A stretch of DNA of 63,971 bases, filler included, from Reclinomonas americana ATCC 50394 (taxonomy: Eukaryota): the NCBI GenBank assembly GCA_048213135.1. It is 19 parts of 19 records of this genome, joined end to end, with 100 filler letters (N's around TTAATTAATTAA, not from the genome) between each part and the next. Parts side by side here need not be neighbours in the genome. Positions count along the whole stretch, not along the records: positions 46,484 to 49,201 come from AFZH01023235.1; 18 more parts are not named here. One strand, given 5' to 3'. Made by a program: the position numbers and the translations under genes. Numbering within the stretch: the first letter of the stretch is position 1; the number at the start of each line of letters is the position of its first letter. Positions 10,410 to 48,557 of the stretch are shown here, piece after piece. The notes beneath the pieces are model-generated. The model ran no database searches. It was not told the DNA's origin and saw only the letters and a list, made by a program, of their open reading frames with translations.

Positions 10410-10559
10410 NNNNNNNNNNNNNNNNNNNNNNNNNNNNNNNNNNNNNNNNNNNNTTAATTAATTAANNNNNNNNNNNNNNNNNNNNNNNNNNNNNNNNNNN
10501 NNNNNNNNNTGCAGAACCACAAACAAACCAAAAGAAATGAAGAAGACACAAACGCAGAA

Positions 10560-43355: not shown

Positions 43356-44054
43356 ATGTGCGCGCTTGATCGGTCCATCCTCGACGCCGTCCCCGCCTTC
43401 GCGGCGCTGACGGGCAAGGAGATCGACATCGTTCTCGCGCAGGCAAGGTCACTGCGATACCCGAAGGGCACCACGGTCTTCGAACAGGGGGGAGCGGCGG
43501 ACAGCTTCTTCGTGCTGCTCCACGGCCATCTCCAGGTCGTGAAGCTCACCCCTGCCGGCCAGCAGGTCGTTATCCGCTATGTCGTGCCAGGGGAAATGTT
43601 CGGCATCGCCGTCCAGATCGGACGTCAGAGCTATCCGGCCACGGCCCAAGCGGTAATGGACAGTCTCGCGCTCGTCTGGCCGTCCTCAGCCTGGCCGACC
43701 CTCGTCGCCCGCTGCCCTGCCCTAGCGGAGAGCGCGTTGCACATAGTTGGCACGCGATTGGACGAGGCCCATGTCCGGGTGGTCGAGTTGGCCACCGAAG
43801 AGGTCGAACGCCGCGTGGCGCACGCCCTTTTGCGGCTTCTCAAGCAAGCGGGCCGAAAGGTCGATGACGGCATTGAAGTGGCATTCCCGATCACACGAGA
43901 GGACGTCGCACAGATGACCGGCACGACGTTGCACACGGTCAGCAGGATCCTGAGCCGCTGGGAGGCGCGTGGGCTTGTCGAAAGTGAACGCCAGCGCATC
44001 GTGGTGCGCGATCCGCACGGGCTCTTCGCCATCGCCGAAACCGCCAAGGCGTAA
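43356..44054 (+). CDS. nnrR: Crp/Fnr family regulator NnrR
   Basis: cNMP fold PGEMFG..YPATA, VERRVAHALLRL, and HTH AQMTGTTLHTVSRILSRWE. Context of nnrS and nnrU. Confidence 0.9.
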   Translation: MCALDRSILDAVPAFAALTGKEIDIVLAQARSLRYPKGTTVFEQGGAADSFFVLLHGHLQVVKLTPAGQQVVIRYVVPGEMFGIAVQIGRQSYPATAQAVMDSLALVWPSSAWPTLVARCPALAESALHIVGTRLDEAHVRVVELATEEVERRVAHALLRLLKQAGRKVDDGIEVAFPITREDVAQMTGTTLHTVSRILSRWEARGLVESERQRIVVRDPHGLFAIAETAKA

Positions 44055-45233: not shown

Positions 45234-45473
45234 GTTCGCTCTCCCAAGGCGTGCGCGACGGCCGTCCGAAGGCGCGCGCGCTCGACATCGGGCTCGTGGA
45301 ACCAGCGGTGCGAGGAAACGCGGTGCAGCACTGGCACCGACCTGCGCAGGACCTGCGGCCGCCAGACTTCTCGGGCCCTGGCGCACTCAAGGAGCGGATG
45401 GCGTGGCGCGTCGCATTCAATGCCGATGCCGAACAGGCCCGTTCGGGGATCCTCAATGGCAAGGTCGATCCCA
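45230..45473 (-). pseudogene. C-terminal Vsr/REase-like domain of a helicase-nuclease-type gene, cut off by IS insertion
   Basis: Hand translation: GIDLAIEDPRTGLFGIGIECD...ARAREVWRPQVL...LHRVSSHRWFHEPDVERARL*. The frame stops abruptly at the IS end. Confidence 0.7.
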
Positions 45474-45519
45474 TGTCAAACGGCGCGGAATATTGCCCCC
45501 CGATCGGCGTCCAATCTTG
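45474..45519. mobile_element. Probable IS21-family terminal sequence, interrupted by ISL3
   Basis: TGTCAAACGGCG...CCCC-GATCGGCGTCCAA resembles IS21-family TG-ended inverted repeats. Confidence 0.5.
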
Positions 45520-46383
45520 GGTCTGACGCAATCTCGCTGACGTTTGGGGCTCATGTCGCGCCAATCAGACGCGCCTGGAGAAGATCGATCTTTCCGCGGC
45601 CGTACATTTGGCGCTTAACGAGCTTGAGACGGGTGATCTGGCCCTCGGTTTGACCGTTTGACCAAGTCGAGAGAATAGCTGCTCGCACAGCGGCCTCGTC
45701 TCGTCGGACGCCATTCGACAATGAGGCGACCAGGCTTTGGGAGGCGCGCTCGATCCAGGAAGCCAAAGGCTCGGCCTGCCTCGCTCTGATCATGGCATGG
45801 AAGTCGGCGACGATCTCGCGAGCCTCGAACAAGGACGGGACGCCGTTCTCGATCGCGGCGATCGTAACAGTTTCGGCCTTCGAGAGATTGTCGCGACCAG
45901 TGGTCATTAACCTCGCGATGGTCCGGGCCGATGGGAGGCGAGCGAGGCTGCTTGCGTCCGCTTTCTCAGCGCGCCGGCGGCGAGTTGCCCATTCGGAGAC
46001 AACCCTGAGGCTTCCCCGGAAGCCGTTCCTTCGCATTGTGCGCCAGAGGGCGGATGCATTGCGGGCGCCGGCGTCCCATTGCGCATCCAACCAGGGTAGA
46101 TGCGCTTCCAGAGAACTCTGGCGAGGTCGGAAGACGTCGCTGCGCTCGCCACGGACGATCCGCCTGACGGTCTGGCGGTGATGGCCCGTGCGCCTGACGA
46201 TCTGTTTGATCGGCACGCCCTCCTGCCAGAGGGCAAGGACCGATGCGTTTGTCTCCTCGCGCCGCAAATATCCGTCATATTGCAGCTTCTCGGCTGCCGT
46301 CAGCAAAGCGGGATTGATCACGGTGGCGCCGATGGCGCCGCGGATCTGACGCATTGACTTGCGCACGGCGTCGAGGAAAGCGC
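45520..46383 (-). mobile_element. ISL3-family element, right part (transposase C-terminus 45551-46383)
   Basis: WSNGQTEGQITRLKLVKRQMYGRG. GG-starting end at about 45520. Confidence 0.9.
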
Positions 46384-46602
46384 NNNNNNNNNNNNNNNNN
46401 NNNNNNNNNNNNNNNNNNNNNNNNNNNTTAATTAATTAANNNNNNNNNNNNNNNNNNNNNNNNNNNNNNNNNNNNNNNNNNNNGATCCCCCGCCTTACGG
46501 GGTCAAACTTGCACACGATGAGGTAATTGCTGCCGTCGATGCCATGACATCAAGTTGATGGACGGCAGGCAGCGGCGCCGGCCTAAGCACGGGATGGTCG
46601 TC

Positions 46603-47631
46603 ATGAAACAGTATGTCGGTCTGGATGTATCGCAGAAAGAGACCAGCGTTTGCGTCGTCGATGAATCTGGAAAGGTCGTCTTTCAAGGCCGCGCGAGATC
46701 CGATCCCGGCGCTTTGGCGGAACTGTTGAGCAAGCGCGCGCCGGGTGCCGAGCGGGTCGGCTTCGAGACCGGCGCCATGTCGAGCTGGCTGTGGCATGAA
46801 CTCAATCGGATCGGTCTGCCCGTCGTGTGCATCGACGCCCGGCACGCGAAGGCAGTGCTGTCAGTTCGAATGAACAAGAGCGACGAGAACGATGCCCAAG
46901 GCCTGGCGGAGTTGGTTCGGGTCGGTTGGTACCGAGAAGTCAAAGTGAAGAGTCCGGAGAGCCAGGCAACCCGATCCCTGCTCGTCGCGCGTTCCAGGCT
47001 TGTCGCCATCCGCCGCGATCTGGAGAACCAAGTCCGTTCGATGCTGAAGGAGCATGGGCTACAGTTCAGCCGATCGATTGGATCACAGTTCCGGCGAAAG
47101 GTCCTGGAGCTGCTTGCAGAGGATCATCCGCTCCGATCCGTGATCGGGACGCTCCTCAGGGTCCATGAGCAAACCTGCGAGGAACAGGAAAAGCTTGATC
47201 GTCAGGTCCGGCGTCTCGCTCATGACGACTGCACTACGCGCCGGCTGATGACGGTTCCCGGCGTCGGCGTGGTGACGGCGCTGACCTACCGCCACACGAT
47301 CGATGATCCCTCGCGCTTTTCCTCGGCGAGCGATGTCGGTGCGTACCTGGGCCTGACGCCGCGGCGAAAACAATCCGGGGAAACGGATGTCAGCGGCCGT
47401 GTCTCGCATTGGGGAGATCGCCTGCTGCGAACCTATCTCTATGAGGCAGCCAGCGTCTTGATGCATCGAACCAAGAAATGGTCGACGCTGAAAGCATGGG
47501 GCATTCGTCTCTCCAAGCGGATCGGGATGAAGAAGGCCAAGGTGGCTGTCGCACGCAAGATGGCCGTGCTTCTCCACTGCATCTGGGTCGACGGCACCAG
47601 CTTCCAATGGGGGAGCGAAAAGAGGGCGTAG
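46603..47631 (+). CDS. IS110-family DEDD transposase/recombinase
   Basis: YVGLDVS, GFETG and KSDENDA (DEDD); [16 protein letters not shown] (catalytic Ser). Confidence 0.96.
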
Positions 47632-47639
47632 GCGCTTCC

Positions 47640-47835
47640 TGCATAAACCCGCTCACGGGCGCCAATCTCGGCACTCGCGATGTCCCCGCCGGGACGGCGG
47701 TTGTGGTGACCTCGTTGTTTCGGCTGACGTCCACTGGAACGTCGTTGCACACGTTGAGGCACCCGACCCGAACATCATCATGAGGCTCTCGACCTCGGAA
47801 AGGACCATGACCCCGGCGATGACGGCGCGAAATCT
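47640..47835 (+). ncRNA. Predicted bridge/seek RNA of the IS1111-type element
   Basis: Contains 9/9 matches to both flanks and short matches to the circle junction, each pair bracketing a small hairpin. Ends approximate. Confidence 0.75.
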
Positions 47836-48557
47836 GAGGTTGACAGCTCTCCGCAATTAAAGGGCCGAAACACAATCCCAAAAGCCCCAGCGTCGCAGAC
47901 GTCCGTCGGCTCCCAGCCCAAGGCCCTCAGCTCCTCCGTCACAGCAACTTCGAGACCATCGCGTCCGCCGACATGGCCAGTCAATCCAGAGGTGAACACG
48001 TCGCCGACGGCCAGACACCGGCCAACGCGGCCCACGGGGGGCACGCGCGCTTCTGCTATCCGGAAGTCCAGCTCCGGTCTCAACGGGCTGCGAGACCATC
48101 GCCTGGAAGACGCTGCGGCCGGGAGACAGCCTCAACTGAATCGATGGCCACCATTTCCTCTACAATGTAGAGTAAATGGTGCCGACACAGACAGGATGCC
48201 ACGTGGCGGGGCGTGTTGGCGCCGCCGCCCACATTCCGCCGCCCTTCTCGCGCCTCCCTTGCGAAGGGGATCCGACCTCAGGGAAGCAGCGACGAGTGCT
48301 CCGACGCTGACGGAACAAAGGAGCGCCGGCCCTCCCGGGCCTCCGCGCCACCCAACGGCTCCAGGTCATCAAGGGAGCATGAGAGGGGAAGGCGCCCATA
48401 AGGGGGAGGGCAGACACAAGCCGTCAACTGCTTCACAGCCTGCGGGTTGACGGAACAGCCCTCCCGCCGGCAAAGGCGTCCAAAAGCAAAGGGGCCGATC
48501 CTCAACGGACCGACCCCAACGCCATCGCCTCCCAGGCATCGCCCCACGATGGGGCCG

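Follow-up and report, generated by a model that had tools for sequence, protein, structure and literature searches.

How does an insertion sequence (IS) come to lie exactly within the end of another IS, always at one position and in one orientation, and what directs it there? This question is raised by a locus in a 63,971-nucleotide stretch of DNA from the Reclinomonas americana ATCC 50394 assembly GCA_048213135.1, referred to here in its full length as the window. Positions 46515–47863 very probably represent an intact member of the IS1111 group of the IS110 family that is guided by an RNA encoded 3′ of its own recombinase gene. As judged from sequence comparison, it has inserted into the terminal inverted repeat, 11 bp from the edge, of an ISL3-family IS, which itself interrupts a host gene. 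The element, its ends and the two halves of its target are as follows.

46515–47863, + strand: whole IS1111-group element, 1349 bp, GC content 0.61, no target duplication, delimited by comparing occupied with uninterrupted sites
46603–47631, + strand: recombinase gene, 342 aa, starting at the ATG at 46603, with motif residues D8, E55, D94, D97 and S258, identified with Pfam, NCBIfam and relatives that align over residues 1–342
46515–46523, + strand: left terminal extension ACGATGAGG, 9 nt (family consensus ACGATGACG), the first 3 nt of which, ACG, are also the 3′ end of the left target guide
46524–46530, + strand: left subterminal inverted repeat TAATTGC, the reverse complement of 47853–47859, conserved among relatives
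47853–47863, + strand: right subterminal inverted repeat GCAATTA (47853–47859) and 4-nt right extension AAGG
47840–47845, + strand: outward-facing TTGACA (−35-like), 18 nt short of the right end, a distance that is fixed and conserved among the relatives compared
46504–46514, + strand: CAAACTTGCAC, the left-hand target half and the inner portion of the terminal repeat of the host IS, common to loci L001 and L020 up to this point and the edge of a unitig in run X10
47864–47874, + strand: GCCGAAACACA, the right-hand target half and the last 11 bp at the outer edge of the host IS, beyond which (from 47875) the copies are unrelated

The recombinase carries the two domains of the IS110 family, PF01548 at residues 21–166 (4.2e-22) and PF02371 (Transposase_20) at residues 229–309 (8.4e-22), numbered on the 358-aa open reading frame from an upstream TTG at 46555, and scored 259.2 bits, against a cut-off of 140, on the NCBIfam model NF033542 ('IS110 family RNA-guided transposase'). 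The ATG at 46603 is favoured over this TTG as the start, and the alignments of relatives begin at the ATG. When aligned to the recombinase of IS621 (8wt6, E 3.8e-10), KSDENDA (D94 and D97) falls opposite KTDTVDA within an NKTDTVDA stretch, and the Ser motif RRKQSGE (S258) falls opposite RRYESGS (GLTPRRYESG), so that the Ser and Asp motifs of the catalytic residues are common to the two proteins. D8 (GLDVS) and E55 (GFETG) were assigned by motif reading and a weak stretch of alignment to ISCro4 only. The recombinase also matched the NCBIfam model for TIGR-Tas RNA-guided endonucleases below its threshold (1.6e-8, 34.8 bits against a cut-off of 100). Non-coding DNA amounts to 232 nt downstream of the gene (47632–47863) and 88 nt upstream (46515–46602), which is the arrangement of the IS1111 group, where most of the non-coding DNA follows the gene (Siddiquee et al. 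2024, PMC11187229). The 7-bp subterminal repeats with short extensions (9 nt left, 4 nt right) likewise fit this group, in which subterminal inverted repeats of 7–17 bp are given (PMC11208160); the left extension is longer than the 7 bp given for ISEc11 (PMC11187229). Ends conserved throughout the relatives are ACGATGACGTAATTGC on the left and GCAATTAAAGG on the right, with AGG replacing ACG at left positions 7–9 in the window. Both the recombinase gene and the guide RNA look intact.

The annotated boundaries should read 46515–47863, as uninterrupted copies of the site could be read directly. At least 30 of them read ...CAAACTTGCAC/GCCGAAACACA, where the slash marks the point of insertion. When the left flank of locus L002 was used as a query against 81 Bosea genomes, many copies of its last 39 nt were found. 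Among the 20 matches listed, 17 uninterrupted ends continue ...GGGGTCAAACTTGCAC/GCCGAAACA, 14 of them then running into ACA and unrelated DNA, two being cut at the end of the locus and one (L109) having TTGCCC; the others are a different end (L114), an occupied site (L095) and an end in ACAGA at the locus edge (L107). A wider pattern search of the retrieved loci and the window gave 32 uninterrupted ends, none with ACG. One complete Sphingopyxis genome holds 13 copies of a single IS end, of which seven are empty (...TTTTGAAC/GCCGTTTGACA), five are occupied (...TTTTGAAC/ACGATGACG...) and one is odd. Nearly all relatives have ACG directly after the left flank, irrespective of which target variant they occupy. 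Since the empty sites lack it, the ACG at 46515–46517 belongs to the IS, which begins at 46515 with ACGATGAGG. The empty site is TTGCAC/GCCGAAACA and the IS is inserted between the two, all copies sharing one orientation relative to the site and nothing being duplicated. The inserted DNA is ACGATGAGG...TTAAAGG, and no base is common to donor and target at the cut. The odd Sphingopyxis copy (G083; L131 position 1501, L132 position 969) consists of an IS21-type end followed by ACG and unrelated DNA. A second copy of this end, which bears the intact IS, lies 532 nt downstream of it, and the odd copy may be a rearrangement or an insertion remnant.

Two 9-nt sequences in the downstream non-coding region correspond to the two sides of this site. 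They and the RNA that contains them are listed here.

47716–47724, + strand: 5′ target guide TGTTTCGGC, the only copy in the window; seven types of this guide adjoin matching flanks
47745–47753, + strand: 3′ target guide TTGCACACG, equal to the top strand of the left junction, namely 6 nt of target (TTGCAC) and 3 nt of the IS (ACG, which empty sites lack)
47688–47817, + strand: guide RNA (long seekRNA or bridge RNA) inside stem P1, GCCGGG (47688–47693) with CCCGGC (47812–47817), from RNAalifold
47695–47770, + strand: target-binding stem-loop, with P2 (47695–47708 with 47760–47770), base stem CCUCG with UUGAGG (47710–47714 with 47754–47759), the guide-bearing internal loop and a hairpin (47726–47743)
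47773–47810, + strand: putative donor-binding region, by position and sequence

The 5′ guide TGTTTCGGC is the reverse complement of GCCGAAACA at 47864–47872, which is likewise unique in the window, and so pairs with the top strand on the right-hand side of the cut. On the left-hand side, the bottom strand is paired by the 3′ guide TTGCACACG; this sequence is also present at 46509–46517, and a third, unrelated copy is at 43929. It fits the occupied junction at 9/9 positions but the empty site at only 6/9.

To see whether guides and flanks change together, a set of 83 copies was assembled from the window, the 80 loci with a related recombinase found in a scan of reference genomes, and two plasmid loci. 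Truncated copies and misfired anchors were dropped and identical guide-plus-flank combinations counted once, leaving 67 usable copies (54 non-redundant) for the right arm and 61 (45 non-redundant) for the left arm, where six target positions were scored. On the right, 46 of the 54 pairs match at 9/9 positions, seven at 8/9 and one at 7/9, a total of 477 matches compared with a mean of 393.9 on shuffling the flanks; 0/10,000 shuffles reached 477. On the left, nine of the 45 pairs match at 6/6, 20 at 5/6, 12 at 4/6, three at 3/6 and one at 1/6 (mean 4.71/6), and the total of 212, against a shuffled mean of 173.6, was also reached in 0/10,000 shuffles. Reducing the set to one copy for each of the seven right-guide and 14 left-guide types gave 63/63 and 63/84 matches, respectively, with 0/10,000 shuffles reaching either figure. 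The right-guide types are GCCG followed by AAAC, ATTG, TTTG, ATTC, AATG or AATA and then A, and GCTTATTCA, and each adjoins a matching flank. In L068, which has GCTTATTCA, the otherwise constant GCCG is altered to GCTT in guide and flank alike. Several guide types, each with its own flank type, occur within single genera, such as ATTG, AATG and AATA among the Bradyrhizobium loci. Because the guides covary with the flanks across relatives, the matches to the target are far beyond chance.

At three loci (L041, L048 and L062) the right flank fits the guide and the left flank fits poorly (1/6, 3/6 and 3/6, respectively); these could be half-matched insertions or the result of later deletions beside the IS. 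A preprint of 2026 reportedly bears a title on 'half-match recombination'. A further complementarity, between TGACCCCG in the RNA (47808–47815) and CGGGGTCA (46498–46505), which precedes the left target half by 9 nt, is probably a coincidence: chance alone would give about 0.16 8-mers of this kind, and the stretch in the RNA belongs to stem P1.

The RNA structure was derived from an alignment because the single-sequence fold of 47676–47830 was uninformative (z-score −1.41, with 19/200 shuffles folding as well). RNAalifold on 42 distinct non-coding regions gave 39 pairs, and 12 of these show compensatory changes; at columns 40/101, for instance, 23 sequences have UA and 12 have CG, and columns 60/81 hold GC in 17 sequences, AU in 13 and CG in 12. 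In this consensus, 97.2% of the cells are paired, compared with 33–48% when the partners were slid by 1–3 columns, and the observed covariation was reached in 0/500 shuffles. Both target guides fall within one internal loop, around a variable, covarying hairpin (GACGTCCACTGGAACGTC, 47726–47743). In IS1111 seekRNAs the match to the top strand comes first, 5′ of the one to the bottom strand (PMC11187229), and the window guides have the same order and the same place in the loop as the tested ones. In RNA structure, guides and guide order the element is thus like those with a seekRNA or bridge RNA. A scan of 46485–48100 against Rfam (E≤1) found no bridge or seek RNA family, only a chance match to a long non-coding RNA (E 0.066).

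Much of this had been proposed in an earlier reading made from the window alone (the sequence-only reading). It had called the protein an IS1111-type recombinase, which PF01548, PF02371 and the 259 bits on NF033542 (cut-off 140) bear out. Its four motifs are all present where it placed them, and the two 9-mers it took for target guides do bracket a hairpin, GACGTCCACTGGAACGTC at 47726–47743, in the order published for IS1111 seekRNAs. It had pointed to covariation between guides and targets among homologues, which was found in both arms, and to empty sites and other insertions in related genomes, which were both found, six close copies lying in the same 22-nt site. Its description of the system as intact agrees with the open frame, the catalytic motifs and the conserved RNA fold.

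The second part of the RNA may read the ends of the IS itself. The circle junction is predicted to be AAAGG/ACGATGAGG, in wider context ...CAATTAAAGG/ACGATGAGGTAATTG..., and CAUCAUCAU (47773–47781) is complementary to 7/9 nt of ACGATGAGG. The hairpin GAGGCTCTCGACCTC (GAGG..CCUC, 47782–47796) is invariant and has TCATC (47775–47779) and AAAGGA (47799–47804) on either side, motifs that occur 90 and 12 times, respectively, in the whole window. AAAGGAC (47799–47805) spans the predicted join over 7 nt, and the extended AAAGGACCAUGA (47799–47810) matches 11/12 nt of AAAGG/ACGATGA. Their position makes these donor guides plausible, but the matches do not exceed what chance would give.

By analogy with tested elements (ISEc11, ISKpn4, ISPa11 and IS621), the RNA would be cut out of the recombinase transcript and bind the recombinase. 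The element would leave as a circle, the junction AAAGG/ACGATGAGG being read by the second loop. As a junction promoter is reported for relatives (PMC11187229), the conserved TTGACA near the right end may become part of one in the circle; a sigma-70 scan of the linear element found 0 promoter-like sites. The sequence-only reading had called the system reprogrammable, and altered guides would retarget it if tested relatives are a guide, which is an extrapolation.

Among relatives, the protein is 100% identical to one in a Bosea metagenome-assembled genome (L001), 99 and 94% identical to those of two Bosea isolates (L002 and L020, respectively), and 64–88% identical to those in Mesorhizobium, Sphingopyxis, Rhizobium, Bradyrhizobium and others, with 71–77% for the Bradyrhizobium loci L042–L079. 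A copy in a Bosea plasmid has 95.9% DNA identity. Close copies (92–100% nucleotide identity) were found at six different places, namely the window, L001, L002, L020, L033 and L125, all within the same 22-nt site. In run X10, which is probably DNA, a unitig spans exactly 46504–47874 and has two left and three right continuations. Full-length relatives at 95–99% identity were found in the metatranscriptomes X15 and X16.

Several points weigh against an active, RNA-guided element. Only one copy per genome was found in the five genomes searched (G001–G005), and the copy in G004 is truncated. The covarying sequences are related to one another, so the shuffle figures overstate their independence. 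The left arm tolerates mismatches, with position −6 matched in only 19/45 pairs and 4/45 pairs matching at 3/6 or fewer (L041 at 1/6); this indicates a left guide that does not extend over a full, strict 9 nt but is shorter or looser. The consensus fold has position −6 base-paired inside the RNA, so this position probably does not serve as guide. For the donor loop, no k-mer longer than 7 nt is common to the predicted junction and the non-coding region, and this length was reached in 401/2000 shuffles, and both loop and IS ends are nearly invariant in the 42 sequences, leaving no variation for covariation, which leaves the donor assignment to position and analogy. No correlated changes were seen by eye between loop variants (L004, L015, L029, L030 and L016) and left-end variants (L022, L035, L043, L072 and L074). 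Transcription of the guide RNA has a weak hint in two perfect contigs of the cDNA library X18, 46567–46745 and 47615–47801 (187 nt, 100% identity), the latter overlapping the guide RNA region, but these are contigs of an RNA library that possibly holds DNA, in which strand, ends and processing are not readable. Finally, the host IS described below appears to be divided between two contigs that only a linker joins in the window. They were assigned to a single ISL3-type insertion on the strength of the host gene common to both and a repeated ATCCCA.

The alternative that survives best is that this copy is a fossil, once guided by RNA but no longer transposing, with its matches frozen, and we consider this unlikely. 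The single copies in G001–G003 and G005 and the truncated one in G004 would fit it, as would the left end ACGATGAGG where most relatives have ACGATGACG. Neither a circle junction nor an empty site was seen in the four runs X10, X15, X16 and X18, of which the contigs, a form that drops rare forms, were searched. On the other hand, the frame is open, the catalytic motifs are present and the non-coding region fits the conserved fold, copies 92–100% identical occur at six places in different genomes, and X10 has at least 2–3 contexts. The AGG variant of the left end is common to L001 and L002, and the putative donor guide fits neither variant at this position.

Far less probable is recognition of the terminal repeat by protein alone, with the guide matches arising from joint divergence of elements and targets within host lineages. 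All of the targets belong to a single family of repeats, of which they are variants, the types of guide and of target both follow host groups, and the left arm tolerates one or two mismatches, as this would predict. However, the matching nucleotides fall exactly in the internal loop of an RNA supported by covariation, with the published seekRNA order and polarity. The constant GCCG has become GCTT on both sides in L068, and different guide types lie beside different flank types within single genera. Dependence on a seekRNA and its reprogramming have been shown experimentally for members of the family (PMC11187229).

The anatomy given by the sequence-only reading, with a start at 46518 and an empty site TTGCACAC-G-GCCGAAACA sharing one G as core, agrees with the fit of the 3′ guide to nine contiguous nucleotides of the occupied left junction but is almost certainly wrong, as all 32 uninterrupted ends lack ACG, which trails the left flank whatever the target variant, and the pattern TTGCACACN{0,6}CCGAAACA had 0 matches in five Bosea-type genomes. 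The left edge had been set 3 nt too far to the right, the form TTGCACACGGCCGAAACA gives way to TTGCAC/GCCGAAACA, and the circle junction ..AAAGG/ATGAGG.. is replaced by the predicted AAAGG/ACGATGAGG. The second-loop motifs TCATC and AAAGGA are present around GAGGCTCTCGACCTC as described there, but the match to the junction that was drawn from them is the one at the chance level given above. That the target is no host gene but the terminal inverted repeat of a second IS went unnoticed in the sequence-only reading.

An intact, RNA-guided element thus remains the preferred reading, and the IS that it has entered can be reconstructed from two further features.

45474–46383, − strand: opposite end of the ISL3-family IS that serves as host, located one contig earlier, with terminal repeat TGTCAAACGGC... 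from 45474 (PF01610 at 5e-8)
47875–47880, strand not applicable: ATCCCA, the probable target duplication of the ISL3-type host IS, with a second copy at 45468–45473; the uninterrupted gene in L088 reads ..GGCAAGGTCGATCCCAAAAGCCCC..

The window is made up of 19 short contigs (1.0–19.4 kb) joined via N44-TTAATTAATTAA-N44 linkers, for example at 46384–46483, and GC content varies from 0.53 to 0.68 between contigs, so adjoining contigs need not be genome neighbours or belong to one organism. The element is found on the contig at 46485–49201, where the true left flank before it is 30 nt. From 47875 on, its right flank is 100% identical to Bosea genome G059, where this sequence is directly 3′ of ...GGCAAGGTCGATCCCA. 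The sequence upstream of that in G059 is the same as window positions 45251–45473 on the preceding contig, and in the window TGTCAAACGGCGCGGAATATTG... and then the ISL3 transposase part come next. This part, at 45551–46381 (− strand), encodes the C-terminal 276 aa of an ISL3 transposase, 274/276 of which are identical to the 527-aa transposase of L098, which scored 337 bits on NF033550. The ISL3-type element of L098 is 1.7 kb long, has matching imperfect terminal repeats and holds the same IS1111-type element in its other end. The split host gene (45251–45473 and 47881 onward; L088 1300–1600) belongs to no Pfam family and is uninterrupted in Bosea G059.

Other relatives were examined for their left neighbours at 59 loci, taking from each left flank its two largest frames (118 in total), with L055 and L056, duplicates of L053, omitted. 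An ISL3 transposase was found in 10 loci, the IstB of IS21 in 11 and an IS21 IstA in one; the remaining neighbours are other transposases or ordinary genes. In 9/66 loci a second, inverted end lies 25–60 nt to the left, and the target there is a 36–70-bp mini-element of two ends. These loci are L003, L023, L038, L044, L049, L053, L055, L056 and L072, some with a central hairpin (CCCCCGGCTTAGGGGG), and the mini-elements look like miniature inverted-repeat transposable elements of ISL3/IS21-type termini. The ends of the ISL3-type element also resemble those beside IstB genes. Residues 302–392 of the 527-aa ISL3-type protein (L098 150–1730, − strand) match the N-terminal part of the IS21 model NF033546 below its cut-off (5.6e-10), Pfam HTH_23 matches at 292–328, and L043 matches NF033546 below cut-off (1.9e-6). 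A DNA-binding module shared by the ISL3-type and IS21-type hosts is possible; pairwise BLASTP of their proteins gave nothing significant.

Elsewhere in the window, four contigs at 10510–40206 have a GC content of 0.57–0.59 and bear long (GA)n/(CA)n tracts, unlike the surrounding high-GC bacterial contigs. Within them, a unit of about 1.68 kb is tandemly repeated at 35.7–38.5 kb with 75–90% identity.

The element was also compared with characterized systems. ISBdi12 is an ISfinder entry, and its transposase sequence is given in supplementary file 3 of PMC11187229. Among the ISfinder transposases of this file, it alone has the N-terminal start of the window protein, the first 21 residues being identical. 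It is the closest named relative and clearly belongs to the same clade as the Bradyrhizobium loci L042–L079, but with roughly three-quarters protein identity, judged by eye, it is a different species-level element. The literature searched, which did not extend to ISfinder itself, held no description of the ends, guides or target of ISBdi12.

Four IS1111-family elements, ISEc11, ISKpn4, ISPst6 and ISPa11, have an experimentally shown seekRNA (Siddiquee et al. 2024, PMC11187229). They share with the window element the downstream non-coding region, subterminal repeats, absence of a target duplication, order of the matches and fixed orientation. They differ in that their two matches overlap in the target, whereas here the matches abut at the cut and the uninterrupted target has no shared core read by both. 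In ISEc11, 4 bp at the left end of the IS repeat the target, while the window IS starts with ACG and its right flank with GCC. Their targets are a repetitive extragenic palindromic sequence, an attC site or a short chromosomal site rather than the terminal repeat of an IS (PMC11187229).

The bridge RNA of IS621 has two loops, each reading one strand on each side of the crossover (Durrant et al. 2024, PMC11208160; Hiraizumi et al. 2024, PMC11208158). It lies upstream of the gene with the guide order reversed, in contrast to the downstream RNA found here, and all four guides read a shared CT core, whereas no nucleotide is common to donor and target at the crossover of the window element (PMC11208160). 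IS621 also has 'handshake' bases that match the partner DNA after strand exchange (PMC11208160; PMC11208158), and formation of the ISEc11 circle needs flanking target sequence (PMC11187229). The presence of ACG in the left guide recalls both, and this ACG could play a handshake-like part. The class of mechanism is already known and tested (PMC11187229, PMC11208160, PMC11208158), and the window element is a well-preserved further member.

The habit of parasitizing mobile elements has a precedent. IS4321 and IS5075 are said, in work of Partridge and Hall in 2003, to insert at one position and in one orientation inside terminal inverted repeats belonging to transposons from the Tn21 family. The habit is the same but the hosts differ, being the 38-bp repeats of the Tn3 family in Enterobacteria for IS4321/IS5075, and ISL3-type and IS21-type ends and mini-elements in Alphaproteobacteria here. 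No description of such ends as IS1111 targets was found in the literature searched, a search that lay outside bioRxiv supplements and ISfinder.

A more far-reaching view would be that this clade recombines without any core common to donor and target, using an RNA tuned to the excision or post-exchange state, and is specialized as a hyperparasite of one type of IS terminus. We regard this as conceivable but doubtful. At 7/8 positions in both cases, the matching stretch AAAGGACC of the second loop suits the donor junction AAAGGACG no better than the product junction AAAGGGCC. If true, it would mean a built-in three-base 'handshake' (ACG), a crossover chemistry unlike the CT-core model of IS621, and a target terminus carried by ISL3-type, IS21-type and other elements, possibly via a common DNA-binding module.

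For the family, the relatives amount to a natural 'reprogramming series', with seven right-guide and 14 left-guide variants, their cognate sites and the mismatches that are tolerated, which is useful for the design of IS1111-type recombinases. The cut TTGCAC/GCCG, with no shared core and with an ACG that lies in the IS and is copied in the guide, departs from the published picture of an overlap or core. ISL3-type and IS21-type IS ends and mini-elements join the list of mobile-element termini hit by IS1111-type elements, which is relevant to the annotation of nested IS and to how IS keep each other in check. Splitting the terminal repeat would disable that end of the host IS, and the element would thereby parasitize other mobile elements while costing the cell little.

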